The notes: generated by a model from the letters alone, not told the origin. A stretch of 64,000 nucleotides of DNA from Algibacter sp. (GCA_050294475.1 JBNKOE010000005.1:11176-75175); one strand, 5' to 3'. Counted from the first letter of the stretch, positions 8,663 through 42,498 are shown. Translations and numbers: made by a program.

Positions 8663-9293
8663 GTAACACATTTAACCAAACCAAGAAACTTAATATTTAT
8701 GAAGAAAATTTTACCAATCATTATTGTCGGAATTATAACTGGAGCAATCGGATTTTTTGCTGGAAAAACAGTTGGATATGACGAAGCTGAAAGAATGCAA
8801 AGTTATCGAAGTGTCGAATCTATTAAATCGGACTTAAAACAACGTGAAACTAAAATGATTTCGACTCTATTAAACGGAACTGCACGAATTGAAACGCGAA
8901 ATGAAGGCGGACTTTTTAGCAGTAAAAAATCGAAATATCTGACTGGTAAAATTCTAAACAACGCTTTAGTTGCGAAAGCAAAAGATGTGAAAGTAATTGT
9001 GACATTTTTATCCAAAACAAAATCGGAAATTGGAAAAGCGGAATTTACTATTTACGAATATATTGAACCTGGAAAGTCGCAATCTTTTGAGAAGAAAGTA
9101 AATGTCTCTCAAGATGTGGCTGAATTTAGCTGGAATATTGTAGATGCAAAAGCGGAATAAAAACGTGTTACAACAATGTATAAAAATAATTGCGGTTTAG
9201 TTCTTAATCAAAGGTAGTTACGTGTTTGATACGTCTGAATTTCCTTCGGAAATTCCTCGCACGCAAACCCGCAACTATTCTTATACGAGACCG
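8661..9293 (+). mobile_element. Solo integron-like gene cassette
   Basis: Starts G|TTGTAACAC (8660-8669), the exact reverse complement of GTGTTACAAC (9165-9174) after its stop codon; ends at G9293|TT. Confidence 0.85.
8699..9160 (+). CDS. Cassette-borne hypothetical membrane-anchored protein (C-terminal Ig-like/FxLYD-like domain possible)
   Basis: N-terminal TM segment; GKILNN..AKDVKVIVTF..YEYIEPGKSQSF pattern. Confidence 0.75.
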   Translation: MKKILPIIIVGIITGAIGFFAGKTVGYDEAERMQSYRSVESIKSDLKQRETKMISTLLNGTARIETRNEGGLFSSKKSKYLTGKILNNALVAKAKDVKVIVTFLSKTKSEIGKAEFTIYEYIEPGKSQSFEKKVNVSQDVAEFSWNIVDAKAE

Positions 9294-9300
9294 TTAAACG
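9165..9300 (+). repeat. attC-like site A
   Basis: TTACAAC-AAT-GTATAAAAATAATTGCGG ... CCGCAACTATTCTTATAC-GAGACC-GTTAAAC; 18-bp stem with 2 mismatches; R' fits GTTRRRY. Confidence 0.85.
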
Positions 9301-9303
9301 AAC

Positions 9304-10002
9304 CTAATAAAATTCAGCCTCAAAAAGCACACTAAAATGTTTCAATAACTTTTCTTTAACCTCAGCTTCATCAACCCTTTGTTGCCCTAACTCTACATTT
9401 AAAGAAGTAACGGCTTTACCACGAATACCACAAGGTATAATATTATCAAAATAACCTAAATCGGCATTTACGTTAAGCGCAAAACCATGCATAGTTACCC
9501 AACGGCTAGCTCGTACACCCATAGCACAAATTTTACGAGCAAATGGTGTACCAACATCTAACCAAACACCTGTTTCACCTGAGCTTCTTTCAGCTTTTAA
9601 ACCATATTCGGCAAGCGTAAGAATAATCATTTCTTCAAGTAAGCGTAAGTATTTATGTATATCGGTAAAAAAGTTTTCTAAATCTAAAATTGGATATCCT
9701 ACAATTTGCCCAGGACCATGATAGGTTATATCGCCTCCCCTATTAATTTTGTAAAAAGTAGCTCCTTTTTCGACAAGTTGTTGCTCGTTTAAAAGCAAAT
9801 TAGATAAATCGCCACTTTTACCCAAAGTGTAAACATGAGGATGCTCTACAAATAAAAAATAATTATTAGTCTTTAAATTAGTATTGTCTTTTCTGTTTTT
9901 AATTTTGGCATCAACAATACCTTTAAACAACTGCTCTTGGTATTCCCAAGTTTGTTTGTAATCATTAAAACCTAAATCTTGCAGTTTAATTTGCTTATTC
10001 AT
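9304..10002 (-). CDS. lipB: Lipoyl(octanoyl) transferase
   Basis: [46 protein letters not shown]. Confidence 0.96.
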
Positions 10003-10031
10003 AGGCTGCAAAATTACAATATTTTTATGTT

Positions 10032-10190
10032 TTAATTCTTCGGATTATTAAGAATAACTAAAGCCGCAATAACACCAGGAACCCAGCCACAAATTGACAA
10101 AATAAAGACAATAATAATAGAGCCACATCCTTTATCTAAAACAGCTAAAGGCGGACAAATAATAGACAGTAAAACTCTCCAGAAACTCAT
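10032..10190 (-). CDS. YqaE/Pmp3-family small membrane protein (52 aa, absent from the ORF track)
   Basis: Manual translation [52 protein letters not shown]; PPLAV and W.PG signature. Confidence 0.88.
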
Positions 10191-10297
10191 GATTTGATTT
10201 ATTTTATTTGATTAATGATACTTACTTGACGTATTAACACTACTAATGTTACAATTTATCATATTCATTTTAAAATAAATTATAGTAGATTAGTAGC

Positions 10298-11350
10298 ATG
10301 TTAAGAAACCTGATTTTGTTGTTATTTTTAATAATGTCTCTTTCTGTAAAAGCACAGTATCATTTTACAGGACGTATAGATAATAAACAATGGCAAAACA
10401 ATGTTTACCTTTCCTTAATTGAAGATTATCGAAAAATTTCTGGGGTTTATTTTGAACAAATTATAGCTAAGGTAAATACCGATAGCTTAGGTTATTTTGA
10501 GTTTTCAGGAAATCAATTAGAAGATGATAACAGAATTTACAGAATTCATGTTGACAATTGTTTTGATAACGAACAAAACAGCAATCATTTTAATGGACAT
10601 TGCAATGATAGTAAAGAAGTTATTTTCATTGCGAAAAACAATGATACCATTGCGTTCCCTTTTTCGTTTGGAAAAGAAATGTTTTGCCAAATTGAATCTA
10701 CCAACAAAAAAGCAACTGCCTTTATTAAAATTGATTCTTTAAAAGATGAAATGAAATTTGCATACAGCGAATTTAGAAGTGAAGCCAACCGAAAACTTAA
10801 TAATAAAAAATGGTTTAAAACATTACAAGATTTTGGTGAAACACAAAACGAACCCATTGCCGAACTTTATACTTATTCATTTTTATCAGATAGAAGAAAC
10901 GATTTTCACAAACATTACCTTGAAGACTTAAAAAACAATCCGTATTATCATAATTTATTAAATCGTTTAATCGAACGCTACCCAAATTCACCTTACACAA
11001 AACAATATCGAGAAGAGTTAAGCTCTGATGAATTTATAATCAATAACAATACATCTACTTCTTCTTTCAACTGGAATTATTTAACTTTCTTTCTATTAGC
11101 AGTTTCGTTAATTATTAATTTTTGGTTTTGGTATACCCAAAAAAAGAATAAAACAATTAGCAAAGCTAAAGAGCAACTTACCAAACAGGAACAAAATATT
11201 CTTAATCTTTTACTTGAAGATAAATCTAATAAAGAAATAGCCGAAGCTGTTTTTGTTAGTGTAAGTACTGTAAAAACACATCTTAACAATATTTACAAAA
11301 AACTGAATGCTCAATCTAGAGACGAAATTAAATCACTATTTAACAGGTAG
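10298..11350 (+). CDS. Membrane-anchored LuxR-type transcriptional regulator
   Basis: Signal peptide, exported domain, TM helix, then LTKQEQNIL..SNKEIAEAVFVSVSTVKTHLNNIYKKL. Confidence 0.85.
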   Translation: MLRNLILLLFLIMSLSVKAQYHFTGRIDNKQWQNNVYLSLIEDYRKISGVYFEQIIAKVNTDSLGYFEFSGNQLEDDNRIYRIHVDNCFDNEQNSNHFNGHCNDSKEVIFIAKNNDTIAFPFSFGKEMFCQIESTNKKATAFIKIDSLKDEMKFAYSEFRSEANRKLNNKKWFKTLQDFGETQNEPIAELYTYSFLSDRRNDFHKHYLEDLKNNPYYHNLLNRLIERYPNSPYTKQYREELSSDEFIINNNTSTSSFNWNYLTFFLLAVSLIINFWFWYTQKKNKTISKAKEQLTKQEQNILNLLLEDKSNKEIAEAVFVSVSTVKTHLNNIYKKLNAQSRDEIKSLFNR

Positions 11351-11457
11351 TTACAAAAAATCAACCTAGTACTAGTACTTATTTCAACCCTAAATAACAA
11401 CCTGTTATTTACTATTTTCATCATGTTTGCATCATTATTAATCAAAAAACAAACATT

Positions 11458-11895
11458 ATGATTTTATCAATTACCAAATTACAAACAGTAAAAACAAAAT
11501 TATTATTAGTAATCTGCTTATTTATTTATGCTGCAAATTTTGCTCAAGAAACAACAGCTAATACAAACGCTGGTGTATTATCCTTTAAAACAGAAATTAT
11601 AGATTACGGCACTATTGAACAAAATGCCAACGGCGAGCGTATTTTTACTTTCACCAATACTGGCAAAAGCCCTATTGTTATTACTAGTGTAAAAACCTCT
11701 TGTGGATGTACAGTACCTTCATATTCTAAAACTCCAATTATGCCAGATGAAAAAAGTGAGATTAAAGTTAAATACGCAACAAACAGAATTGGTACTTTTT
11801 CAAAAACTATCACAGTCATATCAAATGCTTCAGAAAGCAATAAAATATTGCGTATTAAAGGCGAAGTTCTAAAACCAAAACAAGCAAAAAGCTAA
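11458..11895 (+). CDS. DUF1573 domain protein
   Basis: FTFTNTGKSPIVITSVKTSCGCTVP motif. Confidence 0.9.
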   Translation: MILSITKLQTVKTKLLLVICLFIYAANFAQETTANTNAGVLSFKTEIIDYGTIEQNANGERIFTFTNTGKSPIVITSVKTSCGCTVPSYSKTPIMPDEKSEIKVKYATNRIGTFSKTITVISNASESNKILRIKGEVLKPKQAKS

Positions 11896-12014
11896 GTTTT
11901 CACTTGTTTTTATACTAAAATTAAAATCTACCAATAAGTTGTATGCTATTTTTTTGAAAATAATGTAATTTTGCAGCCATCTGTCGCAAAAGACAATATT
12001 CAAAATTAATTAGC

Positions 12015-13706
12015 ATGCAACTTTCAGAACAAGAATTAGTAAGAAGAGAAAAGTTAGTAAAATTACGCGAATTAGGAATTAATCCTTATCCCGCAGATTT
12101 ATATCCTGTAAACCATACTTCCAAACAGATAAAAGATACTTATGAAGAAGGTAAAAAAGTAGTCATTGCAGGACGATTAATGTCTCGTAGAATTCAAGGA
12201 AATGCAAGTTTTGCAGAATTACAAGATGGAGAAGGCAGAATTCAACTCTATTTTAATAGAGATGAAATTTGTAAAGGCGATGATAAGAGCAAGTATAACA
12301 ATGTTTATAAAAAACTTTTAGACATTGGAGATGTTGTTGGAATTGAAGGCGAACTTTTCACTACCAAAGTGGGTGAAAAAACGGTGAGAGTTGATAATTT
12401 TAGCCTACTAAGTAAAGCTTTAAAACCCTTACCATTACCAAGAACAGATGCTGATGGTGTTGTTCATGATGCTTTTACAGATCCTGAACAACGTTACAGA
12501 CAACGTTATGCCGACTTAGTGGTAAATCCACATATTAAAGAAGTATTTGTAAAACGCACCAAACTATTTAATGCCATGCGTTCGTTTTTTAATAACGCTG
12601 GATATTTTGAGGTAGAAACTCCTGTTTTACAACCTATTCCTGGTGGTGCAGCGGCTCGTCCGTTTATAACACATCACAATGCTTTAGACATTCCTCTATA
12701 CATGAGAATTGCCAATGAGTTATATTTAAAAAGACTAATTGTTGGTGGTTTTGATGGTGTTTATGAGTTTTCTAAAAATTTTAGAAACGAGGGTATGGAC
12801 AGAACTCATAACCCAGAGTTTACAGCTATGGAAATTTACGTAGCCTATAAAGACTACAACTGGATGATGGATTTCTGCGAGCGTTTACTAGAGCATTGTG
12901 CTATTGCCGTTAACGGAAGTACTAAAGCTAAATTTGGTGAACATGAAATAGATTTTAAAGCTCCTTACGCTAGAGTAACCATGGCTGATTCTATAAAACA
13001 TTTTACAGGATTTGACATTACTGGAAAAACTGAAGACGAAATTAGAGAAGCTGCCAAAAGCATGAATATTGAAGTAGACGAAACCATGGGGAAAGGCAAA
13101 CTTATTGATGAAATTTTTGGTGAAAAATGTGAGGGCAACTACATACAACCTACATACATTACAGACTATCCAAAAGAAATGAGTCCGTTATGTAAAGAAC
13201 ATAGAGAAAACCCGGAATTAACAGAACGTTTTGAATTAATGGTTTGTGGTAAAGAAATAGCAAATGCTTATTCTGAACTTAATGACCCCATTGACCAACG
13301 TGAGCGTTTTGAACATCAATTAAAATTGGCTGCTAAAGGTGATGATGAAGCTACCGAGTTTATCGATCACGATTTTTTACGTGCTTTAGAATACGGTATG
13401 CCTCCAACATCAGGTATGGGAATTGGTATGGACAGACTTATTATGTTTTTAACCAACAATCAATCTATACAAGAAGTTTTATTCTTCCCTCAAATGCGCC
13501 CAGAGAAAAAAGCTGTTGCAGTTAGTGAAGACGCCAAAGCTATTTTTGAAATATTAAAGAAAGCTGAAAAATTAACACTAAACGATTTAAAAGCTCAGTC
13601 TGGTTTATCCAATAAAAAATGGGATAAATCTATTAAAGAATTAACTAAAAACAATCTTGCTAAAGTTGAAAAAACAGATGAAGGATTGTTTGTTAACCTT
13701 TTTTAA
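12015..13706 (+). CDS. lysS: Lysine--tRNA ligase (class II)
   Basis: RYRQRY, EVETP, GGAAARPF, FRNEGMD..HNPEF, YGMPPTSGMGIGMDRL. Confidence 0.98.
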   Translation: MQLSEQELVRREKLVKLRELGINPYPADLYPVNHTSKQIKDTYEEGKKVVIAGRLMSRRIQGNASFAELQDGEGRIQLYFNRDEICKGDDKSKYNNVYKKLLDIGDVVGIEGELFTTKVGEKTVRVDNFSLLSKALKPLPLPRTDADGVVHDAFTDPEQRYRQRYADLVVNPHIKEVFVKRTKLFNAMRSFFNNAGYFEVETPVLQPIPGGAAARPFITHHNALDIPLYMRIANELYLKRLIVGGFDGVYEFSKNFRNEGMDRTHNPEFTAMEIYVAYKDYNWMMDFCERLLEHCAIAVNGSTKAKFGEHEIDFKAPYARVTMADSIKHFTGFDITGKTEDEIREAAKSMNIEVDETMGKGKLIDEIFGEKCEGNYIQPTYITDYPKEMSPLCKEHRENPELTERFELMVCGKEIANAYSELNDPIDQRERFEHQLKLAAKGDDEATEFIDHDFLRALEYGMPPTSGMGIGMDRLIMFLTNNQSIQEVLFFPQMRPEKKAVAVSEDAKAIFEILKKAEKLTLNDLKAQSGLSNKKWDKSIKELTKNNLAKVEKTDEGLFVNLF

Positions 13707-13859
13707 AAAAATAAGCACATTATTTTTTTTTACCTTTAATAGGAAATATTAAATTATATTAATATTTTAGTAAAAACCAATATTATCGAAATAAATAATA
13801 TTGGTTTATTATTTAATTTGGTAAAACTTCTCTCGCATTAGCCTCAAACTAAAACAGAA

Positions 13860-15914
13860 ATGTTTAATAAAATTTACAAAAAGGTAGTCTTACTACCTTT
13901 GGCTTCATTTATAATCACTTCTTTATTAGCTATTTCCGTATGGAACGAAGCTTTGTATACCAACAATCAATTAATTGAAGAAAATGTTCTTCAAACAGGA
14001 CACCTTATTTCAAAAGAGTTTAAAAACATCATAAAATCGGATATCGCTCGACTACAAAATCTCAAAAACAGAATTGAGTTTACTAATGGTATGTATTTTG
14101 AGCACTGGGAAAAAGACGCTAGTATGCTGTTAGAACAAAATTCATCATTCCAATTTTTAGAATGGATTGACAGCACAATGATAGTAAGAAAAATCACTCC
14201 TTTAATTGGAAATGAAAATGCTTTAAATTTAGATATCTCTAAAATAGAATACCGAAGAGATGAATGGATAAAGCATAGTAAAAACAATTTAGTTAATATT
14301 ACTCCATGGGCAAAATTAACACAAGGAGGACACGCTTTTTTAGTAGATATACCTGTTTATTTCCAAAATAATTTCCAAGGCACAATTACAGGTGGTATGG
14401 ACTTTAAAAAAAACTTTAATAAACTAACAACAAGTTTAGAAAACCAATATTCAATAGAATTATGGGATCATAAAAAAACTCTTTTTTATAATTTAAACCA
14501 AAATAACAAACTTAAAACTGGAAAAAATTTTGTTTTTGAAGATTATTTTTTAATAGATAGTTTAGATAATCACAAATGGCTATTAAAAGTTACTCCAAGT
14601 AACGATTTACTTATTTATCAAGCTCAAATCATTACTCATATCGCATTAATTGCAGCATTGATTTTATGTCTTTTAATAAGCTTCTTAATATACTTTTATA
14701 TAAGAACAAAAGAAAATGCAAAACAAGCATTAGCATCAAATATCAAACTTTTAAAAACAAATAAAAAGTTAAACAACGCACGCAATAGAGCTGAAAAAGC
14801 ATCACTTGCCAAAACAGAGTTTTTATCAAACATGAGTCATGAAATAAGAACTCCGCTCCATGCTATAATAGGATTTATTGAACTTTTAAAAAGTAGTACG
14901 CTTAATAAAACCGACAAAGAGTATTTATCATTAATGGAAAAAGCATCAAATAATTTATTAAATATTGTTAATGATATTTTAGATATTGAAAAAATTGAAT
15001 CTGGAAAAATAGAATTAACAGAAGTAAATTTTAATCCATCTAAAAAAATACAAGAATTAATTGATGTTAATCAATTTATATTTTTACAAAAAAATCTTTA
15101 TTTAAAAGCCAATTTCATGAATACTCATTCCATGAATGTTATTGGTGATGAAAACAAATTAATCCAAATAGTTCATAATATTATTAAAAACGGATTAAAA
15201 TTCACAGAATCAGGAGGCGTAACATTAACCTATAATGAAACTATTGTACAAAAAAATCAATTAAGAATAACAATTTCAATTAAAGACACAGGAATTGGTA
15301 TTCATCAAGATAGTTTAAATGCAATCTTTGAAAGATTTACACAAATTGAAAATAGCGTTAAAAAACACTACGAAGGTAGTGGTCTTGGGTTATCTATATG
15401 CCAAATTTTCATTAAAATGATGGGAGGAGAAATTTCAGTTAAAAGTTTGCCTAATGTTGGTACTGAATTTTCATTTGATGTATTTTTCCCAATTTCCGAT
15501 AATCGGAAAAAAGAAATAAATATTGTAAACAAAAAAAATATCAACCTATCGGATTTAAATATTTTAATTGTTGATGACAATCACCTAAATATTATTGTTC
15601 TTAAAAAATTTCTTGAAGACTTTGGAATTAAACCTGACACAGCAAAAAACGGAAAAATTGCTTTAGAAAAATTTATAAAAAAACCATATCAACTTATTTT
15701 TATGGATATTCATATGCCAGAAATGGATGGTTGGGAAGCCACAAAAGAAATTAGAAAAATCAATATGGATGTGATTATTTTTGGATTATCTGCAAATGTA
15801 ACGACTGAAGCTATTGATAAAGCTCTTGAAAATGGCATGAATAACTACCTCTCTAAGCCTTTTAAAAAGGAACATATTTATAAGCTTTTACATTTCCATT
15901 TTAGTAATAATTAA
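13860..15914 (+). CDS. Hybrid sensor histidine kinase/response regulator
   Basis: Two TM segments, FLSNMSHEIRTPL, DTGIG/GSGLGL HATPase, receiver VDD..FMDIHMPEMDG. Confidence 0.93.
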   Translation: MFNKIYKKVVLLPLASFIITSLLAISVWNEALYTNNQLIEENVLQTGHLISKEFKNIIKSDIARLQNLKNRIEFTNGMYFEHWEKDASMLLEQNSSFQFLEWIDSTMIVRKITPLIGNENALNLDISKIEYRRDEWIKHSKNNLVNITPWAKLTQGGHAFLVDIPVYFQNNFQGTITGGMDFKKNFNKLTTSLENQYSIELWDHKKTLFYNLNQNNKLKTGKNFVFEDYFLIDSLDNHKWLLKVTPSNDLLIYQAQIITHIALIAALILCLLISFLIYFYIRTKENAKQALASNIKLLKTNKKLNNARNRAEKASLAKTEFLSNMSHEIRTPLHAIIGFIELLKSSTLNKTDKEYLSLMEKASNNLLNIVNDILDIEKIESGKIELTEVNFNPSKKIQELIDVNQFIFLQKNLYLKANFMNTHSMNVIGDENKLIQIVHNIIKNGLKFTESGGVTLTYNETIVQKNQLRITISIKDTGIGIHQDSLNAIFERFTQIENSVKKHYEGSGLGLSICQIFIKMMGGEISVKSLPNVGTEFSFDVFFPISDNRKKEINIVNKKNINLSDLNILIVDDNHLNIIVLKKFLEDFGIKPDTAKNGKIALEKFIKKPYQLIFMDIHMPEMDGWEATKEIRKINMDVIIFGLSANVTTEAIDKALENGMNNYLSKPFKKEHIYKLLHFHFSNN

Positions 15915-15935
15915 TTATACAGAACTATTAAATAA

Positions 15936-15967
15936 AAAAATCAGTAATTTTTCAATTACTGATTTTT
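15936..15967. terminator. Bidirectional intrinsic terminator
   Basis: AAAAATCAGTAATT-TTTC-AATTACTGATTTTT. Confidence 0.75.
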
Positions 15968-34269: not shown

Positions 34270-34481
34270 TTATATCTTCTCTTTTCTATTAAATTATATT
34301 AATTGCAAAACAATTTTTATCTTTACTCTCCATTTTTCATTTTAAATGGTGGAAAGAACAAAACTACAATTACATCAACACATATAGTATTGTAATAATT
34401 TTTTGTAGGTTTGGTCGTTTGCATATAAACACAATCTTTTGGTTGAATTTCATGAATTGCAAAAATAGTATATTTTAGGTA

Positions 34482-35453
34482 ATGAGTAAGGTAAAATATT
34501 ATTACGATTCCGAATCGCTTTCATATAAAAAAATAGAGCGTAAAAAACGCACTACTTTTAAGTATGCTACTATGTTTTTATTAGCATCTGCATTATTTGG
34601 TTTTTTATTTGTTTTTTTAGCGAGTCAATATGTAGAATCTCCTAAAGAACGTGCATTAAAAAGAGAACTTCAAAACGCACAATTGCAATTTGAATTGTTA
34701 AATAAGAAAATGGATGAAGCTGAATCTGTTTTAGCTAATATTGCAGATAGAGATAATAATATTTATCGTGTTTATTTTGAAGCAAACCCAATACCAGAAG
34801 CACAAAGAAAAGCAGGTTTTGGTGGAGTAAATAGATATAAAAAATTTGAAGGCTTTGACAATTCTAAACTTATTATAGAAAGCAATAAACGATTAGATAT
34901 TTTACAAAAAGAGATTGTAGTACAATCTAAATCTTTAGATGAAATAACAAAACTTGCTGAAGAAAAGGAAAAACTACTAGCTGCCATTCCAGCCATACAA
35001 CCTGTTAGCAATGAAGATTTAACTAGAATGGCATCTGGTTATGGCATGAGAACAGACCCTTTTAACAAAACCAGAAAAATGCATTGGGGCATGGACTTTA
35101 CTGCTCCAAGAGGCACGCCTATTTATGCAACTGGAGATGGTATTATTACTAGAGCAGACAATAGATCTACTGGTTATGGCAACCATATTAGAATAGATCA
35201 TGGTTTTGGATATGTTAGCCTTTACGCCCATTTATATAAATACAATGTTAGAAAAAACCAAAAAGTAAAACGTGGCGATCTTATAGGTTTTGTTGGGAGC
35301 ACAGGGCGATCTGAAGCACCACATTGCCACTATGAAGTTTTTAAAGACGGACAAAGAATTAACCCTATAAACTTTTATTACGGAAGTTTAACTGCTGAAG
35401 AATTCAGTAAACTATTGGAGCATGCTTCATTAGAAAACCAATCTCTAGATTAA
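34482..35453 (+). CDS. M23 family metallopeptidase
   Basis: HWGMDF, YAHL, HCHYEV. Confidence 0.92.
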   Translation: MSKVKYYYDSESLSYKKIERKKRTTFKYATMFLLASALFGFLFVFLASQYVESPKERALKRELQNAQLQFELLNKKMDEAESVLANIADRDNNIYRVYFEANPIPEAQRKAGFGGVNRYKKFEGFDNSKLIIESNKRLDILQKEIVVQSKSLDEITKLAEEKEKLLAAIPAIQPVSNEDLTRMASGYGMRTDPFNKTRKMHWGMDFTAPRGTPIYATGDGIITRADNRSTGYGNHIRIDHGFGYVSLYAHLYKYNVRKNQKVKRGDLIGFVGSTGRSEAPHCHYEVFKDGQRINPINFYYGSLTAEEFSKLLEHASLENQSLD

Positions 35454-35454
35454 T

Positions 35455-35784
35455 ATGCATGTAGATTTACCTGAAAAACGTTATTATGCTATAGGAGAAG
35501 TTGCAAAAGCTTTTGGCGTAAACACCTCTTTAATTCGTTTTTGGGAAAAAGAATTCGACGTTTTAAAACCAAAGAAAAACGCTAAAGGAAATCGAAAATT
35601 TACTCCAGAAGATATTAAAAACCTTAAATTCATCCATCATCTTGTTAAAGAACGTGGTTTTACACTTGAAGGAGCCAAAATACATTTAAAAGAAGGTAAA
35701 AAAGACACTCTTAACAATTTTGAAATAATAAGTAAATTGGAAGATATAAAAAATCAACTTATTAAAATTAAAGAACATCTTTAA
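35455..35784 (+). CDS. MerR-family transcriptional regulator
   Basis: YYAIGEVA...SLIRFWEKEF...GNRKF. Confidence 0.9.
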   Translation: MHVDLPEKRYYAIGEVAKAFGVNTSLIRFWEKEFDVLKPKKNAKGNRKFTPEDIKNLKFIHHLVKERGFTLEGAKIHLKEGKKDTLNNFEIISKLEDIKNQLIKIKEHL

Positions 35785-35880
35785 TCATTCTCTTAAAAAA
35801 AACAATTTAACTTGTAACTTTTATACAAGTTTTGTGTCATACACTACTAACAATTAAAAAGATTTTTAAAACTCACTATC

Positions 35881-36468
35881 ATGAAAAAATGGCTACCATT
35901 AATTATTATCATTGCTGTAATTCTTTTAATATTTAAATGGGGAATTGGAACAAACAATATGCTGGTTGAAAAAGAAGGTTTAGCAAAAGCACAATGGGCA
36001 AATGTTGAAAGTTCTTACCAAAGAAGAGCAGATTTAATACCTAACCTAGTAGCAACCGTAAAAGGCTATGCTGCACACGAAAAAGAAACCTTAGAAGGTG
36101 TAATTAAAGCACGTTCTGAAGCAACAAAAACAACCATTAATGCTGGTGACTTAACACCAGAAAAGATGGCGCAATTTCAACAAGCTCAACAAGGTTTAAG
36201 TGGTGCTCTATCTAAATTATTAGTAACTGTAGAAAGATACCCTGATTTAAAAGCAGATAAAAGTTTTTTAGAACTCCAATCGCAACTTGAAGGTACAGAA
36301 AACAGAATTAATGTAGAACGAAATCGTTTTAATCAAATTGCAGGAGAATACAATATCATTATTAAAAAAATACCAACCAACTTTATAGCAAGTATGAGAG
36401 GGTTTGAAGGCATGCCTTTATACAAATCTGATTCAGGAAGTGAAAATGCTCCTAAAGTAGAATTCTAA
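35881..36468 (+). CDS. lemA: LemA family protein
   Basis: YQRRADLIPNLV, ERYPDLKA, LEGTENRI. Confidence 0.92.
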   Translation: MKKWLPLIIIIAVILLIFKWGIGTNNMLVEKEGLAKAQWANVESSYQRRADLIPNLVATVKGYAAHEKETLEGVIKARSEATKTTINAGDLTPEKMAQFQQAQQGLSGALSKLLVTVERYPDLKADKSFLELQSQLEGTENRINVERNRFNQIAGEYNIIIKKIPTNFIASMRGFEGMPLYKSDSGSENAPKVEF

Positions 36469-36905
36469 TGTCTAAAATCGAAGATTTTTTAACACCATTT
36501 GAAGAAGAAGAAATTATCGAAGCCATAAGAATTGCTGAGCTTAATACTTCTGGTGAAATACGAGTACATCTCGAAAAAACATCGAATGGCGATGCCACAA
36601 ATCGTGCTTTAGAATTATTTTACACCTTAAAAATGGATAACACCAAACTTCAAAATGGTGTTTTAATTTATGTTGCTGTTGAAGATAAAACTTTTGTTAT
36701 TTATGGAGACAAAGGCATAAACGATGTTGTTTCAAACACATTTTGGGATAGCACTAAAGATATTATGCAATCGCATTTTAAACAAGGTAATTTTAAACAA
36801 GGCTTGGTTGAAGGTATTATAAAATCTGGCGAACAATTGAAAAAATATTTCCCGTGGCAAGATGATGATATTAATGAACTATCTAACGAAATATCTAAAG
36901 GATAA
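36468..36905 (+). CDS. TPM domain protein
   Basis: AELNTSGEIRVH, NGVLIY; within the lemA operon. Confidence 0.88.
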   Translation: MSKIEDFLTPFEEEEIIEAIRIAELNTSGEIRVHLEKTSNGDATNRALELFYTLKMDNTKLQNGVLIYVAVEDKTFVIYGDKGINDVVSNTFWDSTKDIMQSHFKQGNFKQGLVEGIIKSGEQLKKYFPWQDDDINELSNEISKG

Positions 36906-36915
36906 GATTTAAAGT

Positions 36916-37767
36916 ATGCAGTATTCAGTATCCAAATCCAATATTCAGTCTTACTTTAAAACAAAAAACACAATATTATTCTCATTTTTTGTTGCTTTTT
37001 TATCGTTTAGCTTTTCTTATGCACAATTTGAAATTCCTGAAAAACCAGACTTTCAAACTAGTATTTATGATTATTCAAAATTACTTTCTACTTCGCAAAA
37101 AAATAACCTTGAACAAAAGTTAATAAAATATTCAGACACAACTTCCACTCAAATAGTTATAGCTATTATCAATTCAACCAATGGTGAAAACATCAACTTC
37201 TTAGGTGCTCAATGGGGGCAAAAATGGGGTATTGGACAAAAAAAGGAGGATAACGGCATTTTAATTTTACTTGCTAAAAACGATAGAAGAATAGCTATAA
37301 ACACTGGATATGGTATAGAATACCTTTTAACAGATGCCCTATCTAAACGTATTATTGAACGAGATATTATTCCCTATTTTAAACAAAACGATTATTATGG
37401 CGGATTAAATCGCGGTGCTGATGCTATTTTTGAAGTACTGAACGGTGAATATCAAGGAACAAGAAAAACATCTTCTAATAACGGGGTTCCTGTTGGACTT
37501 ATAGTCATTATTATTTTTATCATTATTATCATTTCTATTTCTAAAAATAGACGAGGTGGTGGTAATAATAGAGGAAACAGATCTGGCGGTATAGATATTT
37601 TAGAAGCCATTATTTTAAGTAATATGGGACGTGGTAATTACCACAAAGGTTCTTCTGGAGGCTTTGGAAGTAACTCAGGTGGTGGATGGTCATCTGGTGG
37701 TGGCGGTTTTGGCGGCGGCTTCGGAGGTGGCGGCTTCGGAGGTGGCGGTGCTTCTGGAGGTTGGTAA
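36916..37767 (+). CDS. TPM domain protein (YgcG-like) with Gly-rich tail
   Basis: WGIGQK..DNGILIL, GYGIE..LTDA, GGGFGGGGASGGW. Confidence 0.9.
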   Translation: MQYSVSKSNIQSYFKTKNTILFSFFVAFLSFSFSYAQFEIPEKPDFQTSIYDYSKLLSTSQKNNLEQKLIKYSDTTSTQIVIAIINSTNGENINFLGAQWGQKWGIGQKKEDNGILILLAKNDRRIAINTGYGIEYLLTDALSKRIIERDIIPYFKQNDYYGGLNRGADAIFEVLNGEYQGTRKTSSNNGVPVGLIVIIIFIIIIISISKNRRGGGNNRGNRSGGIDILEAIILSNMGRGNYHKGSSGGFGSNSGGGWSSGGGGFGGGFGGGGFGGGGASGGW

Positions 37768-37843
37768 TACTAACTAGTAACAAAACGCTCTCTAAGTAAT
37801 AATTTTTTATTCAAAGTGCTCTAACAATTTCATTGAGTACTTT

Positions 37844-37945
37844 ATAAAAAATAATGACTCTAATTCAGATTTAAGCAATTATGTTAATTTTAAGAATGAA
37901 AAAGAACCAACCACTATTAATTTAGGAATTGGAATTGAATTATAA
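37844..37945 (+). pseudogene. 3' remnant of a cassette ORF
   Basis: Startless frame ...DLSNYVNFKNEKEPTTINLGIGIEL* ending 1 nt before attC-like site B. Confidence 0.45.
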
Positions 37946-37946
37946 C

Positions 37947-38080
37947 GTATGCTAACACAGTATCAAAAATCGCTAATTTTATCCTAAACCAATGTTAGTA
38001 GCTTTGCTTGCTTACGATTTTACTTCGAAAAATACTCGCACACAAACCCGCACTATTCTTATACAATCACGTTGCATGTA
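37947..38080 (+). repeat. attC-like site B (left arm decayed)
   Basis: TGCTAAC-ACA-GTAT... ; right part TACTTCGAAAAATACTCGCACACAAACCCGCACTATTCTTATAC-AATCAC-GTT closely matches site A. Confidence 0.8.
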
Positions 38081-38101
38081 ATTTGAACAAATTAAATATA
38101 A

Positions 38102-39064
38102 ATGAAAAAATTAAATCTGATTTTATTGGTGTTAATCCCAATATTAAGTTTCGGACAAACTGAAAAAGAAACTAACAAAAAGATTTCTGCTGAATTTGAA
38201 AAACACTTCAATTCAGATGAATATCAAAAGATTTTTGACTTGTTTTCGCCTGAAATGAAAAGTGCCTTACCAATTGAACAAACGACTGACTTTTTAAAAG
38301 GACTGAAAAGTCAGACAGGAAAAATTAAAAAAAGGGAATTTATAAAATATGAGCAGACTTATGCCTCTTATAAGACAATCTTTGAACGAACTATTTTTGC
38401 AGTAAATATATCACTTGACAATAATGCAGAAATCAATGGTCTTTTTGTAAAACCTTTTAAAGAAGATAATCTTCCCAAACTTGAAAGAAATAAAACGAAA
38501 CTGGTTTTGCCGTTTAATAGTGAGTGGACAGTAATTTGGGGCGGAGACACTAAAGAATTAAACTATCACGTAGAAAGCGAAGCTCAAAAAAACGCATTCG
38601 ATATTGTAATTACAGACAAAAACGGAAAAACCTTTAAAACAGACGGAAAAACAAACGAAGATTATTATGCTTTTGGAAAAGAATTTATTGCACCTTGTGA
38701 TGCAGAAGTGGTTTTAGCGGTTGACGGAATAAAAGACAACACACCTGGAGAATTAAATCCTATTTACATTCCAGGAAATACTGTAATTTTAAAAACAGAA
38801 AATGACGAATATTTATTCTTTGCTCATTTCAAACAAAATTCGATTGTCGTAAAACAAGGACAAAAAATAAAACAAGGAGAATTATTAGGGCTTTGTGGAA
38901 ATTCCGGAAATTCTTCAGAAGCTCATTTACATTTCCACATTCAAAATGTGGAAGATATAAACAAAGCGACTGGAGTAAAATGTTATTTTGACGAAATAAT
39001 TGTGAATGGAGAATTGAAAAAAGACTATTCGCCAATAAAAGGAGAAGAAATTAAAAACAAATAA
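38102..39064 (+). CDS. Cassette 1: exported M23 peptidase with N-terminal DUF3887-like domain
   Basis: Signal peptide; AFDIV, FAHFKQ, GNSGNSSEAHLHFH. Confidence 0.85.
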   Translation: MKKLNLILLVLIPILSFGQTEKETNKKISAEFEKHFNSDEYQKIFDLFSPEMKSALPIEQTTDFLKGLKSQTGKIKKREFIKYEQTYASYKTIFERTIFAVNISLDNNAEINGLFVKPFKEDNLPKLERNKTKLVLPFNSEWTVIWGGDTKELNYHVESEAQKNAFDIVITDKNGKTFKTDGKTNEDYYAFGKEFIAPCDAEVVLAVDGIKDNTPGELNPIYIPGNTVILKTENDEYLFFAHFKQNSIVVKQGQKIKQGELLGLCGNSGNSSEAHLHFHIQNVEDINKATGVKCYFDEIIVNGELKKDYSPIKGEEIKNK

Positions 39065-39068
39065 AAAC

Positions 39069-39207
39069 TACTGGCAGCAATGGTTATAAGTAATTGCCTG
39101 TTCTCGCCTACTTCTAAAAATACTCGCAGATTTTTAGCTTAGGTGTGTACTTGCAGAGTTAAGTGCTAGACTACGCAACTACTCATAGCCAAACCATTGG
39201 CGTTAAT
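39069..39207 (+). repeat. attC-like site C (both cores mutated)
   Basis: CTGGCAGC-AAT-GGTTATAAGTAATTGC ... GCAACTACTCATAGCC-AAACC-ATTGGCGTTA; AAC changed to AGC and GTT to ATT. Confidence 0.8.
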
Positions 39208-39242
39208 TTTGGAAACAAACTGCAAAATTGAAAACACATAAG

Positions 39243-40343
39243 ATGAAATATTCATTACTAATAATTATCTTGATTAATACAATATTGAGCTATAGTCAAG
39301 AGATAACCATAGAAAAAATAAAATTAACTGAAACAGTTGATAATCGTTATGTTTCTGAAATCCCTAAAGTAAAAGACTTAACCAATAATAAAAATCCTAT
39401 TGTAGAGAAAATTAATTCTCAGATTCTTGATCGTTTTATGATTAATAGCTTTAATCAAAATGAATTAGAAGAATTTAGATGGTACGAAGTTGAATGTTCA
39501 TTTGAGATAAAAGAGAATATTCTTTATATATCATTTGCAGGAGAGTACTATGGAGCATATCCAAATTATGTTGAAGATGAATTTTATTTTGATTTAAAAA
39601 ATGGGGAGCCTCTAAAATTATCCATTATTCCTTTTCAAGCGTTATTCACATTATCTGGATATCTAGATTTTCTTAACAAATATTGGCTTAAAGGAGTTAA
39701 AAAGAAATTTATAGCTGCTATCGAGTGTGCGGAATTTGAGCCTTACTGTAGTTACTATGACATTTATAATTACAGTGTAAAAGATAATAAATTCTCGATT
39801 TCGCTATCAAATGACTGTTATCCTCACGTAGCTCAGGCATGTTCTCCTTATTATGAAATATCTGTAGAACTTGATACTCTTAAACAATACATAAATGAAC
39901 TTGGAAAATATATCCTTTTAGAAAGCAATTATTTATCAGAAACTCCAATTGAAAAGTTTTTAGAAAATGAGAAATTGAAGAAAGAAACAGAAAACAATTT
40001 ATTCATCTTTGGGAAGATTGACGATAAATATCCTTTTAGTATGGCAATAAATATAGATAATCAAGGAGTAATATCTGGTTACTATTATTATGATTTAAAA
40101 CTTCAAAAACTGGTATTGAAAGGACAAAAAAAAGATAATACTATGCTATTAACCGAGACAATTAACAATAAACAAACTGGATTCTTCGAGCTAAATATTA
40201 GCAATACATACAACTCGGAAAGTTTCTTTTTATATGACTCTAACGGAAATGATAAATACTTGATTGGAAAATGGCTGAATTCTGATAAAACGAAGATTCT
40301 TGACATTAAATTTTCAGAAGTAAAAACAAATGATAAAAACTAA
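39243..40343 (+). CDS. Cassette 2: exported hypothetical protein (RsiV/DUF3298-like region possible)
   Basis: Signal peptide; INSQIL...YISFAGEYYGAYP..FYFDLKNG; stop codon overlaps the core TAACGCCAAC. Confidence 0.7.
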   Translation: MKYSLLIIILINTILSYSQEITIEKIKLTETVDNRYVSEIPKVKDLTNNKNPIVEKINSQILDRFMINSFNQNELEEFRWYEVECSFEIKENILYISFAGEYYGAYPNYVEDEFYFDLKNGEPLKLSIIPFQALFTLSGYLDFLNKYWLKGVKKKFIAAIECAEFEPYCSYYDIYNYSVKDNKFSISLSNDCYPHVAQACSPYYEISVELDTLKQYINELGKYILLESNYLSETPIEKFLENEKLKKETENNLFIFGKIDDKYPFSMAINIDNQGVISGYYYYDLKLQKLVLKGQKKDNTMLLTETINNKQTGFFELNISNTYNSESFFLYDSNGNDKYLIGKWLNSDKTKILDIKFSEVKTNDKN

Positions 40344-40455
40344 CGCCAACACTTAGATGTAGTGCATTCGGGTTCTAGCGGCTTGCGAGCGTTTGTAGCT
40401 CGTAAAAAAAGTAGATATAAACTGATTCGCTAAAAAATTAGATTTACTATAACCC
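40341..40455 (+). repeat. attC-like site D, left part only
   Basis: TAACGCCAAC is the reverse complement of the cassette 2 start (G/A)TTGGCGTTA; no right arm or GTT before the next ORF. Confidence 0.6.
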
Positions 40456-40471
40456 TTAAGACTATATAGAA

Positions 40472-41053
40472 ATGCAAAATGAAATTAAATTAACAACAAA
40501 AAAGATTAAAACGGCACAAAAAATAGGTAATGTCTTTTTTGCCATTATACTTATTTTAAATGTCTGGATTATGATTAAACCTTTAATCGTTAATTTTGAT
40601 CTAAGGGATATTGGGGTGTTTAAGCTTCTTAGAAATAATGAGACATATGTAGTACTTGGTGCATTTGTAATATTACTTGGCGTTCGGTTTTTAGTTATTA
40701 ATTTTCTTGCTATATCAGGAGCTAAAATTATAGGAGATAATATAATTATACAAAAACAATTCAAGCCTGATAAGGCTTACTTGTTTAATCAGATAGTTTC
40801 TATTAATTCTATTGGGTATAGAAATGTGCGATTTTTTAAATTATCGATACAAGACAACAATAAAATTAATGAGTGTTTAATATTTAGCACATATTGTTTG
40901 CCAGAATTTGAAAATAAAAATGTAGAACAGGTTTTGATTAGTTTACAAAAAACAGATAGCAGAAATAAAAATAGTAGTATTGAATTACTCAAAAACATAG
41001 ACATAATAAACATATTTTTAGAATTCAAAAAGAGGTTTTCTTTTAGAAAATGA
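40472..41053 (+). CDS. Cassette 3: hypothetical membrane protein
   Basis: Two TM segments; 193-aa ORF between hairpin sites. Confidence 0.65.
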   Translation: MQNEIKLTTKKIKTAQKIGNVFFAIILILNVWIMIKPLIVNFDLRDIGVFKLLRNNETYVVLGAFVILLGVRFLVINFLAISGAKIIGDNIIIQKQFKPDKAYLFNQIVSINSIGYRNVRFFKLSIQDNNKINECLIFSTYCLPEFENKNVEQVLISLQKTDSRNKNSSIELLKNIDIINIFLEFKKRFSFRK

Positions 41054-41145
41054 TTTAAACCCGAATAATTTGTATGTAAGATGTTTACAATTAAGAAATA
41101 TTGAAAACATATAAGTCTTTCATTTCAACATATCGGAATAACAAC

Positions 41146-41282
41146 AAATCGCTAAGTGCTCATAAATAATATGGCAGCCAGTGGTTTGCGAAGGACTGTT
41201 CTTTTGATTATGTTTGATTCAAATTTGGATAGAAGTTTGGTAAAGTGCCAAACTATTCATAGCACAAAACGTTAGGCTCCAT
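41146..41282 (+). repeat. attC-like site E
   Basis: TCGCTAAG-TGCTCATAAATAATATGGC ... GCCAAACTATTCATAGCA-CAAAAC-GTTAGGC; R' fits GTTRRRY; left core damaged. Confidence 0.72.
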
Positions 41283-41313
41283 GCTAAGAGTCGTACACAT
41301 TGATTAAAAATAT

Positions 41314-42354
41314 ATGAATTACCAAAATTATTTACTCACATACCTTGTCTTTATCCTTTTTTGTGGATGTAATTCTAATAGTTCTCAAAATCGAATTAAT
41401 AATAAGACAAAAGAAATTGAATTAATTAAATCTGTAAAAAAAGATACTATTTCATCTGCAATATTGGATAAAGAAAAAATTTCTTCTACAAAAAACACAA
41501 AGATTCAAGACTTACTTGATAAAGTAGAATTATTGCAAGTTCCTTTAACTTATTCTTTTGAAGACACTTTCAATATTAATGCAATAAAAGAAACAAAGCC
41601 TTTATCTGATGAGGTTTTGGATTTACTGAGTGTTGAAAAAATTCACAATGGAGAATATGATTTTAGGGGAAGGCTTTGGTTGTCATTTCAGCTTAATTTG
41701 TCAAAGAATTTTAAAACCTTGGTTTTTTCTATCGAAGATGGTGGTTCGGGCGAGAGTGTACTTGTTAATTATTCAAATGATTTTAAATTTATTGATTATA
41801 GAAGTATTGCTTATGAAGATTATGCAGAAGGATGGTTCTCGTCTAATTCATTGATTGAAAAAAATAGAATGTTTTTATATAAGGATAGCTATACAGATTA
41901 TCCTGCGGAATACGATACAATATGTTTGGTTATAGATGAATATGGAGGAATAGATACCTTACCTGTTGAAAAAACAACCAAAATAGATAATGCAACAGTA
42001 GATGACACATACAATAATGTTCATGAATCAATTAGGGCGTATAAAAAATTAGAAAATATATTAGTAACAGAGAAGTTTCTAATACGGATAGACAGATTAA
42101 ACGATAAAAGTTATCGTTATGCTTCATGGTCGAAAAATCAAAAAGTATCAGAGAAACCAGATTTGGTATTGTTAAAAGGTGAATATTTAAGAGAAGGAAC
42201 TGGTGGTAATTATAGTTATGAATTTAGTAATGGTAACTATCTTTATCGGTGTTCATTTCAGCCGTTAAGAGAAAGTCAGGCTCCTCCTGCAGTTTTAAGA
42301 GTGTACAAAGACGATGAAGAAATTTTATATCAACCTGCAGAAATAATAAAATAA
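41314..42354 (+). CDS. Cassette 4: hypothetical lipoprotein
   Basis: Lipobox-like FCGC; C-terminal IRID...YRYASW...KPDLVL..G..GTGGN.SYEF.NG.Y.Y domain. Confidence 0.72.
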   Translation: MNYQNYLLTYLVFILFCGCNSNSSQNRINNKTKEIELIKSVKKDTISSAILDKEKISSTKNTKIQDLLDKVELLQVPLTYSFEDTFNINAIKETKPLSDEVLDLLSVEKIHNGEYDFRGRLWLSFQLNLSKNFKTLVFSIEDGGSGESVLVNYSNDFKFIDYRSIAYEDYAEGWFSSNSLIEKNRMFLYKDSYTDYPAEYDTICLVIDEYGGIDTLPVEKTTKIDNATVDDTYNNVHESIRAYKKLENILVTEKFLIRIDRLNDKSYRYASWSKNQKVSEKPDLVLLKGEYLREGTGGNYSYEFSNGNYLYRCSFQPLRESQAPPAVLRVYKDDEEILYQPAEIIK

Positions 42355-42360
42355 TGCACG

Positions 42361-42498
42361 AGATTACAACACTTTATAAATTTAATTACGGGTATACTTA
42401 AATTGGCGGCTTTGTCCATTTACTGTTCCTTTTGTTTATCTGAACAAAGAAACGCTTCAAAATTCGCAACGTCAATTTATAAATAATCGTTATGTTTC
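42361..42498 (+). repeat. attC-like site F
   Basis: ATTACAAC-ACT-TTATAAATTTAATTACG ... CGCAACGTCAATTTATAA-ATAATC-GTTATGT. Confidence 0.78.

Follow-up and report, generated by a model that had tools for sequence, protein, structure and literature searches.

The closest published system to the one we describe here is rAID-1, the recombinase-associated acquired interbacterial defence clusters of Bacteroidales (Ross et al. 2019; preprint 10.1101/471110). These clusters are recognised by a 5' XerD-like recombinase at least 44% identical to BF9343_RS08045 and by orphan immunity genes as cargo, with a G+C content below that of the recombinase gene (Ross et al. 2019). The flavobacterial loci we studied resemble rAID-1 in having arrays of small co-directional genes with a XerD-like tyrosine recombinase of Bacteroidota at their 5' end; the recombinase is of the same enzyme class, and another rAID-1 feature, at least two co-directional downstream genes with repetitive intergenic sequences, is present in loci such as L001, L006, L022 and L055. 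For the repeats, the rAID-1 paper gives MEME motifs only, with no hairpin, spacer geometry, strand polarity or junction rule, and we liken the two systems by description. rAID-1 also differs in its gut Bacteroidales hosts and its immunity genes.

The CTX-phi attP(+) hairpin is reportedly recombined by XerCD, in work attributed to Val et al. in 2005. It would share with our sites a non-IntI Xer-type recombinase, a folded single strand, an asymmetric unpaired centre and the exchange of one strand pair, but it serves phage integration at dif, once in each genome, it has no cassette-bounding repeats, and it shows no sequence or layout similarity to the flavobacterial sites. Integron attC sites depend on IntI and recombine as a folded bottom strand (Bouvier 2005/2009, MacDonald 2006, Nivina 2016 PMC5027507), with an unpaired spacer of 'usually five to six bases on each arm' (Nivina 2016, PMC5027507).

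We analysed sites A to F in a 64,000-nt stretch of Algibacter sp. (GCA_050294475.1 JBNKOE010000005.1:11176-75175), referred to as the window, in whose coordinates all positions are given. Judged from sequence, there are roughly three chances in four that these are cassette recombination sites of an integron-like form of gene capture in Flavobacteriaceae and other Bacteroidota, and would serve as functional attC analogues. Our best reading of the system is that it is integron-like and non-IntI, with attC-like sites whose bottom strand would be the one that folds and is exchanged.

Site A (9165-9302, predicted to fold on the minus strand) is a complete family member. On the top strand, its left side consists of R'' GTGTTACAAC (9165-9174), the spacer AAT (9175-9177) and a stem arm (9178-9195), and its right side of a stem arm (9269-9286), the spacer GAGACC (9287-9292) and R' GTTAAACGAA (9293-9302). 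The variable terminal region between them (9196-9268) holds an inner mini-hairpin at about 9237-9256. R1, a covariance model from 91 sites (90 from other genomes plus site A), gives site A, a member of its training set, 108.3 bits on the minus strand and 22.4 on the plus strand. Folded as DNA, the minus strand reaches -19.9 kcal/mol (z -3.1) and the plus strand -17.1.

Site A is undamaged; decay marks the array of sites B to F, which has no recombinase adjoining and in which several sites are mutated. Site B (37948-38080, minus strand), the 5' boundary of the array, carries ..GCTAAC, spacers ACA and AATCAC and R' GTTGCATGTA (R1 66.3 bits, E 3.5e-13). Its right arm is intact and 84% identical to the inner right half of site A; its left arm has decayed by substitutions and an indel, with four non-standard pairs in the R1 alignment. 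Direct repeat D10 was detected at this site. Site C (39069-39205, minus strand; 79.7 bits, E 3e-16) keeps its spacers, AAT and AAACC, and its stem, and its minus strand folds at -19.4 kcal/mol (z -2.3). Both of its cores are mutated, with AGC for AAC (TACTGGCAGC) and ATT for GTT (ATTGGCGTTA), giving mismatches at the core pairs of R1, and it is probably no longer cleavable. Site D is a remnant (40341-40366, plus strand) of which the left core TAACGCCAAC and the spacer ACT can be recognised; it gave no R1 match, and neither a matching right arm nor a GTT was found ahead of the next ORF at 40472. Its TAACGCCAAC is complementary to ATTGGCGTTA of site C at 9 of 10 positions, the single mismatch being the mutated G of C. 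Site E (41136-41280, minus strand; 26.3 bits, E 6e-4) is degenerate, with R'' GAATAACAAC, right spacer CAAAAC, R' GTTAGGCTCC, a 1-nt insertion in the left stem and 11 nt rather than 3 after R''; R1 shows an insertion in the 3' spacer of the model. Site F (42360-42498, minus strand) is a divergent member with spacers ACT and ATAATC and R' GTTATGTTTC (37.0 bits, E 2e-6).

The first-pass annotation had read left spacers of 3 nt and right spacers of 5-6 nt at sites A, B, C and F, and both coordinates and letters hold; it was also right to leave out sites D and E, of which E has a left spacer of 11 nt and D a left core only. Over the 64 kb, R1 found nothing above 17 bits besides sites A, B, C, E and F (including the top strand of A, at 22.4). 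Matches to the window among sequencing runs were metagenome contigs only, identical to the window, with no RNA run among them.

Related arrays are headed by a 375-aa recombinase of the Xer/XerA type. Of 225 site matches, 224 lie in one orientation relative to the recombinase, and nearly all are downstream of its gene. The protein passes NF040815 (238 bits, cut-off 220) and fails both the IntI model TIGR02249 (198.5 against a cut-off of 265, with the match split in two) and PRK15417 (128 against 435). Aligned to VchIntIA (2a3v) it lacks about 43 residues, and against XerA the alignment is continuous; the array recombinase is without the IntI insertion. We confirmed 481 relatives of it among species-representative genomes, and arrays occur in dozens of genera. 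The window retains a 3' remnant of such a gene (63460-63740, plus strand; about 95 codons of a Xer/XerA-type tyrosine recombinase), 92% identical to the C-terminus of the intact Psychroserpens gene of L001, which has an array behind it. Directly 3' of the stop codon of the remnant is an attI-like site (63741-63791, plus strand) made up of ATAATGT, the 24-bp palindrome GGATATAGACAATTGTCTATATCC (63754-63777), AATT and GTTGCCAGTA (63782-63791). It has the same type of stem and a GTT core and scores weakly with R1 (17 bits); its position is conserved, and its arms covary, across about 40 related loci.

Site A closes a solo cassette (8660-9293, plus strand) that starts with GTTGTAACAC (8660-8669), ends at the right-core G (9293) and contains one ORF (8699-9160, 153 aa) with no Pfam match. 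GTTGTAACAC is the exact reverse complement (10/10) of R'' GTGTTACAAC of site A, the same rule that we find at 98 array junctions. There, the seven variable bases after the GTT of one site are complementary to the left core of the next at an average of 6.39 of 7 positions, and perfectly so at 62 of the 98 junctions, compared with 2.80 for same-site pairs and 2.58 for random pairs. One cassette is common to three genera, and its homology stops at most 5 nt from both GTT cores. The cassettes of these marine flavobacteria are units whose boundary is the right-hand GTT. Between sites B and F, four co-directional cassette ORFs (38102-42354, plus strand) have the rAID-1-type gene layout with no recombinase adjoining: the first (38102-39064) encodes DUF3887 and an M23 peptidase by Pfam, and the others (39228-40343, 40472-41053 and 41314-42354, all plus strand) match no Pfam family. 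This layout agrees with that of the related arrays, in which the median cassette is 805 bp, the ORF is co-directional in 85 of 101 cases and the start codon lies a median of 29 nt past the GTT.

For the family as a whole, we aligned to the model 150 sites taken from 80 related Flavobacteriaceae loci. Top-strand sequences of the sites read YAAC-A-nn-(16-17 nt stem arm)-variable region-(stem arm)-nnnn(n)-C-GTTR. The variable region measures either about 90 or about 155 nt and contains inner mini-hairpins whose loops resemble tetraloops. The cores are AAC in 146-147 sites and GTT in 150/150, the flanking Y is C in 96 and T in 51, and the flanking R is G in 101 and A in 48; bases beyond these are free. 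The cores agree with the RYYYAAC ... GTTRRRY inverse core / core pattern of attC. The left spacer is 3 nt in all 150 sites and the right spacer is 6 nt in 100 and 5 nt in 47, so that a bottom-strand hairpin would have a 2-nt 3' spacer and a 4-5-nt 5' spacer in 147/150; this model-based alignment leans to the 3 / 5-6 geometry because the 91 seed sites were picked with such spacers and with no top-strand wobble. The checks that are independent of seed selection are an unconstrained scan, alignment column 11/143 and the non-training sites. In the unconstrained spacer scan, which covered the 80 related loci, the 3/6 and 3/5 classes turned up 163 times on the strand of the recombinase versus 31 times on the opposite one, with 15-31 for each other spacer class, and 58 of about 60 non-training sites have the 2-nt and 4-5-nt spacers. 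The stem is continuous in 121 of the 150 sites; since the remaining 29 have a single 1-nt bulge on the bottom-strand 5' arm, the absence of an extrahelical base is not universal.

Pairing in the 16-17 bp stem is accompanied by compensatory changes at 13 of 17 pairs. Standard pairs fill 93.4% of cells, compared with 81.2% in shuffles, and double-sided changes occur at 14 of 22 pairs. The covariation score is 0.328 versus 0.103, a value reached by none of 500 shuffles, and slid controls stay at or below 0.084. The 'wobble-type mismatches' in the first-pass description of the stem proved to be real and polar: a left A opposite a right C on the top strand is a G·T pair on the bottom strand. These wobbles occupy fixed stem positions, columns 23/134 (80/91 sites) and 28/129 (91/91), and a third adjoins the core at column 11/143, which had no part in site selection and is G·T in 90/91. 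Counted over the full set of 22 pairs, 326 cells are G·T on the bottom strand and 26 are A·C, 9 of the latter inside the long stem. The unbiased scan gave the same polarity, with wobbles on the bottom strand only in 94 of 109 3/6 sites. The bottom strand is the stabler by 3.17 kcal/mol on average and in 140 of 149 sites (p 6e-25); among non-training sites it is better by 2.68 kcal/mol, in 55 of 60.

These measurements bear on whether the sites act instead as duplex DNA, the inverted repeats being protein half-sites that form no hairpin, with both strands exchanged as at Xer/dif or phage att sites. The adjoining enzyme is Xer/XerA-like, most such enzymes act on duplex sites, and the attI-like site is a compact palindrome that is possibly an ordinary duplex core. 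However, the arms of the array sites are 90-155 nt apart and so make no normal core site, and variable stem positions change together with pairing kept (GC/AU/CG, in several columns), which half-site recognition does not need. The fixed mismatches, moreover, have a uniform polarity, each G·T on one strand being A·C on the opposite strand, folding energy favours the G·T strand, and cassette boundaries fall at one core only. We consider duplex recombination unlikely.

The sites could also be ordinary attC, and the array a CALIN on which a true IntI encoded elsewhere in the genome acts in trans. The integron hallmarks are there. Like attC, the sites are imperfect palindromes with ..YAAC / GTTR.. 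cores; the right-hand GTT marks the boundary (G|TT of R') and the left core complements the cassette's own 5' end, in line with the junction complementarity; a cassette usually has one promoterless ORF; the variable terminal region has two size classes; and the bottom strand is stabler, by 3.2 kcal/mol here and by a reported 2.1 for 263 attC. The distance from the presumed cut to the stem on that arm (C plus 5-6 nt) is also equal. The architecture is nevertheless not that of attC. The first-pass annotation thought the spacers more asymmetric than those of attC, and they are, in a conserved manner: 3 nt versus 5-6 nt in 147/150 sites, compared with 5-6 nt on both arms in the literature and, in seven real class 1 attC, a left spacer of 5 nt, a right spacer of 5-6 nt and an extrahelical base. 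Where attC have two or three extrahelical bases on the L'' arm, these sites have none, with a rare bulge on the opposite arm. Also unlike attC are the three fixed polar G·T wobbles, the long (16-17 bp), AT-rich stem with its partly conserved sequence, an R box that in array context is AAC/GTT plus one wobble only, and a partner enzyme without the IntI-specific insertion, whose gene runs in the same direction as the cassettes.

A good score with an attC model, which the first-pass annotation had named as evidence against a distinct architecture, was not obtained with the proxy model used here. R2, a proxy attC model from six GC-rich class 1 attC that differs from IntegronFinder's model, gave no match at E<=10 on the window and L001 with filters off, and none on 119.5 kb of window and arrays with default filters, yet it recovers the held-out attC of aac(6')-29b (60 bits) and dfrA27 (22 bits). 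Conversely, the flavobacterial model detected none of the class 1 attC, so the two covariance models do not cross-detect. With arrays lying directly behind a recombinase without the IntI insertion in 80 genomes, and with IntegronFinder surveys finding almost nothing in Bacteroidetes (PMC9024848), a CALIN of ordinary attC sites seems highly improbable.

Strong covariation, G·U-type pairs and inner mini-hairpins with tetraloop-like loops are also typical of, or compatible with, a structured RNA, whether Flavo-1, another ncRNA, or a terminator or stabiliser of cassette mRNAs. Flavo-1 (Rfam; Weinberg et al. 2010, PMC2864571) is a motif confined to Flavobacteria, the group in which our sites also occur; it is reported in either orientation relative to transcripts, with no known function (PMC9723704). 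The suggestion that the sites are Flavo-1 did not survive an Rfam search, which returned no Flavo-1 match at any of them. On the site regions no family, Flavo-1 included, appeared at gathering score or at E<=10, nor was there a match anywhere in the window when all of it was searched at E<=5. On 141 kb of related arrays (about 45 sites) there was again no site match, while 6S-Flavo and tRNAs were found in the same search. We reject the identity with Flavo-1, and the sites are a different element. The wobble pairs are on the strand antisense to the cassette genes, so that an mRNA would carry A·C mismatches in their place, and an RNA function leaves unexplained why the bases after GTT complement the next left core and why shared cassettes end at the cores. 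The same junction complementarity and GTT-bounded shared cassettes favour the earlier suggestion of a DNA recombination site over an ncRNA, and to the RNA alternative we give very little credence. Selfish intergenic repeats of the MITE or REP kind piling up between genes, a reading that draws on the many similar copies per genome and on assemblies that often break there, are hardly tenable given the strictly single orientation downstream of one recombinase family, the single, tightly spaced site per ORF and a junction complementarity that marks gene-plus-site units, not stand-alone repeats.

Returning to recombination of a folded strand, we propose the following mechanism. The bottom strand would fold as single-stranded DNA into a hairpin with a short R box, AAC/GTT closed by the invariant G·T; an asymmetric internal loop with 4-5 nt on the 5' arm versus 2 nt on the 3' arm (the '5-6 versus 3' of the earlier description); and a long stem where G·T wobbles recur at two or three fixed positions, invariably with the G on the 5' arm. 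As in integrons, the recombinase would bind at the R box together with the foot of the stem, and its cut in the bottom strand would be at AA|C. We place the cut there because the cassette boundary is at R' and because cleavage by tyrosine recombinases is 5'-arm|spacer-3'. The cleaved arm would then have the cut-to-stem distance of canonical attC (C plus 5-6 nt), with the opposite arm 2-3 nt shorter. The pre-bent asymmetric loop and the polar G·T wobbles may select the strand, replacing the extrahelical bases and the IntI-specific domain of integrons. It is tempting to speculate that this is a second solution to single-stranded DNA hairpin recombination, possibly independent of integrons, in which a plain Xer/XerA enzyme with no IntI insertion, acting on sites free of extrahelical bases, picks and recombines the bottom strand by reading an asymmetric loop (4-5 nt versus 2 nt) and three polar wobbles; we regard the odds of this as evenly balanced.

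If the reading as a second solution is true, integron-type capture would not be tied to IntI, and would be widespread in Bacteroidota and missed by current finders. Integron surveys, which rely on a single attC model and a single integrase signature, find Bacteroidota almost devoid of integrons; the sites described here suggest an overlooked phylum-level reservoir of mobile gene cassettes, for which the defined geometry offers a concrete search model. They also raise the question of how a tyrosine recombinase without the IntI domain recognises a folded strand and picks the correct one, to which the fixed 3-nt spacer, the 5-6-nt spacer, the three G·T wobbles and the lack of extrahelical bases are relevant. 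If the rAID-1 clusters of gut Bacteroidales share this geometry, it would supply the site-level description that they have been missing.

The hairpin layout that the first-pass annotation had described for four sites in the window, with 3 nt between the left core and the stem and 5–6 nt before the right core, matches the sequence exactly. Site A (9165-9302) reads GTGTTACAAC-AAT-GTATAAAAATAATTGCGG ... CCGCAACTATTCTTATAC-GAGACC-GTTAAACGAA, and the same arrangement is seen in site B (37948-38080; left spacer ACA, right spacer AATCAC), site C (39069-39205; AAT and AAACC) and site F (42360-42498; ACT and ATAATC). The mismatches in the stem, which had been called wobble-type, are indeed of that kind: both stem mismatches of site A place a left-arm A opposite a right-arm C on the top, cassette-coding strand, which makes G·T wobbles on the complementary strand. 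When site A is folded as DNA, the bottom strand reaches −19.9 kcal/mol (z −3.1) versus −17.1 kcal/mol for the top strand. The G+C content of the window is 30%. A single ORF precedes site A, while sites B to F separate four co-directional ORFs.

Using a truncated tyrosine-recombinase tail at window 63460-63740 as query, we fetched 80 loci, of 481 confirmed matches, from Flavobacteriaceae and a few other Bacteroidota. In the Psychroserpens locus L001 the recombinase gene is intact; beyond it lie a palindromic site and then an array in which a hairpin of the same design comes after every ORF. Regular-expression and ungapped scans missed sites or were swamped by the AT-rich background, and we replaced them with a two-spacer scan for AAC...GTT pairs that counted wobbles and left the spacer length free on both sides. 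Across the 80 loci, the recombinase strand carried 163 matches of the 3/6 and 3/5 spacer classes and the other strand 31, with 15–31 occurrences for any other class. Non-Watson-Crick positions were wobbles on the bottom strand only in 94 of 109 3/6 matches. A covariance model built from 91 sites aligned on the bottom strand (R1, from alignment A1) gave 225 matches at E ≤ 0.001 in 1.08 Mb, nearly all downstream of the recombinase gene; 224 of them are on the strand that does not encode the recombinase, so the sites have a single fixed orientation relative to the recombinase.

Several further features of these loci were seen along the way. The same site type is present outside Flavobacteriia in a Melioribacteraceae MAG (L059), where about 3.6 kb of the array is in tandem duplicate (11336-11473 / 14966-15103; 12099-12300 / 15729-15930). 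Reichenbachiella versicolor (L075) has a related recombinase, 68% identical over the tail, with no R1 match and no 3/5–6 site in the 10 kb downstream of it; the site type may differ in Cytophagia. Many draft contigs (L002-L005, L013, L015, L021, L030 and others) run for no more than a few hundred bases past the recombinase gene; short-read assembly probably breaks at the repeated sites, and array sizes are hence underestimated. Weak 58-nt tRNA-model matches (30–33 bits, just over threshold) recur in three genera about 0.5–3 kb upstream of the recombinase gene (L001 8520-8577, L006 7213-7270, L007 6021-6078 on the minus strand), and may be a tRNA fragment marking the location of the platform.

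In the window itself, R1 separates an intact site from decayed ones. Site A, a training member, scores 108.3 bits (22.4 on the top strand), and both it and its cassette look intact. Site C scores 79.7 bits with both cores mutated (AGC, ATT), site B 66.3 bits with a decayed left arm, and the divergent site F 37.0 bits. Site E scores 26.3 bits, its 3-nt spacer replaced by 11 nt and a 1-nt insertion added; site D gives no R1 match and retains the left core alone, which is still complementary to the right core of C at 9/10 positions. From these scores and sequence defects, the array at 37.9-42.5 kb looks like a fossil. In runs X1-X4, several 31–37-nt unitigs are confined to site B's right arm and core (window 38037-38074) and have two to six times the main contig's depth, so this arm sequence is common to many sites in those metagenomes. 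The only runs that hold this sequence are metagenomic, their contigs identical to the window; one candidate excision joint with 21-nt sides was judged spurious.

The covariation analysis called for by the first-pass annotation was run on the 91-site alignment and found compensatory, double-sided changes. RNAalifold returned the R box and the long stem, and 10 of the 17 pairs showed compensatory changes. In a 22-pair structure, standard pairs fill 93.4% of cells (81.2% in shuffles) and double-sided changes occur at 14 pairs; the covariation score of 0.328 compares with 0.103 and was reached by 0 of 500 shuffles, with slid controls at or below 0.084. Three G·T pairs are fixed, each with G on the 5' arm: beside the AAC/GTT core (90/91; this position played no part in site selection), at stem position 7 (80/91) and at stem position 12 (91/91). 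A fourth position is G·T in about half of the sites. Within the variable region lies a conserved inner mini-hairpin, such as GAATTTCC-TTCG-GAAATTC (window 9237-9256; A1 columns about 45-100). It is present in most related sites, lies in either half of the variable region according to subfamily (two subfamilies), and has a stem that covaries among sites (GAAAATCC/GGATTTTC, GAAAGTCC/GGACTTTC).

Spacer lengths were taken from model columns, since maximising pairs over 12 nt is register-ambiguous in AT-rich stems. With the closing G·T not counted, all 150 best R1 matches have a 3' spacer of 2 nt, and the 5' spacer measures 5 nt in 100 and 4 nt in 47 of them; counted as in the first-pass annotation, the same spacers are 3 versus 6 or 5. 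The pattern recurs in 58 of roughly 60 sites outside the R1 training set. Where the stem has a bulge (29/150 sites), it always falls on the bottom-strand 5' arm. The bottom strand is the stabler by 3.17 kcal/mol (140/149 sites), and by 2.68 kcal/mol in non-training sites (55/60); the published bottom-strand bias of attC sites is 2.12 kcal/mol (n = 263; PMC5027507).

That these hairpins are DNA recombination sites is supported by the cassette boundaries. We compared the 7 variable bases after the GTT of each site with the 7 before the AAC of the next in 98 consecutive pairs and found a complementarity of 6.39/7, perfect in 62 pairs; the two cores of the same site gave 2.80 and random pairs 2.58. 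Read from sequence, this is the integron rule, with a unit of TT...ORF...hairpin...G and a predicted crossover at the right-hand core. Upstream of site A, GTTGTAACAC (window 8660-8669) is the exact complement of that site's left core. One cassette is common to Psychroserpens, Xanthomarina and Gelidibacter at 91–99% identity, and its homology ends within 5 nt of both GTT cores, even with 80 nt of flank included in the comparison. The median cassette is 805 bp long. Of 101 cassettes, 85 have a co-directional longest ORF; the median distance from GTT to the start of the longest ORF is 29 nt, and its stop precedes the end of the left core by 17 nt. Elsewhere in the window, a 300-nt direct repeat (5762-6061 and 8308-8607; 98% identical) duplicates the 3' end of a ppk2 gene and flanks a DUF6088/AbiEii toxin-antitoxin pair and a HATPase fragment; the region looks like what is left of an island that integrated into ppk2, bringing a replacement gene end.

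A canonical attC identity is rejected, as R1 and a proxy attC model fail to cross-detect. Plasmid-borne class 1 integrons, retrieved with IntI1 as query, supplied seven attC sites, all of which have 5 nt on the left, 5–6 nt on the right and one extra base in L''. The flavobacterial sites, at 3 and 5–6 nt, are thus more asymmetric, as had been claimed. With filters off, R1 detected none of the seven. A reciprocal model, R2, was built from six of them and, being small and GC-rich, stands in for the standard model only as a proxy; with it, the training sites are recovered at 54–77 bits and two non-training attC sites at 60 and 22 bits. At E ≤ 10 this small, GC-rich proxy matched no flavobacterial site, either with default filters over 119.5 kb or with filters off over the window and L001, so the proposed check against an attC model gave the sites no score. 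For Bacteroidetes, IntegronFinder surveys list one complete integron and otherwise only In0 elements (PMC9024848), a sparse record that fits sites invisible to the standard model.

Identity with Flavo-1, the motif raised in the first-pass annotation, or with any other Rfam family is rejected: no family matches any site at gathering scores, in the site regions at E ≤ 10 or across the whole window at E ≤ 5, nor was a site matched in 141 kb of related arrays, where the same search did find 6S-Flavo and tRNAs. A transcriptome study of F. psychrophilum reports that Flavo-1 matches occur in both orientations and frequently fall outside transcripts (PMC9723704), and for that reason Flavo-1 may be a DNA element of its own, separate from the one here.

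The recombinase that accompanies the sites, 375 aa when intact in database entries, passes the XerA-type model NCBIfam NF040815 (238 bits, cut-off 220) and fails both the integron-integrase model TIGR02249 (198.5 versus 265, in two pieces) and PRK15417 (128 versus 435). Among the 120 protein matches listed, only Flavobacteriaceae appear. The recombinase aligns along its whole length with archaeal XerA structures (4a8e, 5hxy), and with VchIntIA (2a3v) as two blocks that skip about 43 integrase residues, where the IntI-specific insertion is located. In integrons, this insertion reads the extrahelical bases of attC (MacDonald 2006), so an enzyme that lacks it and sites whose L'' arm has no extrahelical bases are mutually consistent. 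An attI-like palindrome lies in the 60–90 nt after the recombinase stop (L001-L076; window 63741-63791). It differs between genera, its arms change together (GGATATAGACA/TGTCTATATCC, GGATATACGTA/TACGTATATCC, GGATAGCATCA/TGATGCTATCC), and AATT-GTT or CTAC-GTT always comes next; it may likewise function as a hairpin or cruciform.

By description, rAID-1 of gut Bacteroidales comes closest among published systems; its account gives MEME motifs only (10.1101/471110). In the literature searched, no earlier work on Bacteroidota describes the geometry of these hairpins, the polarity of their wobbles or the junction rule. Both the spacer asymmetry and the reading of the hairpins as DNA sites are supported.

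Tyrosine recombinases cut 5'-arm|spacer-3'. Given a boundary at the right-hand core, the bottom strand would be the one exchanged, with the cut at AA|C, which would agree with the wobble polarity and the energy bias. With such a cut, the distance to the stem on the cleaved arm would be C plus 5–6 nt, equal to that in canonical attC, whereas the opposite arm is 2–3 nt shorter here and is lengthened in attC by extrahelical bases. We propose that the asymmetric loop, 4–5 nt versus 2 nt, pre-bends the hairpin and that this loop and the polar G·T pairs would jointly tell a plain Xer-type enzyme which strand is reactive.
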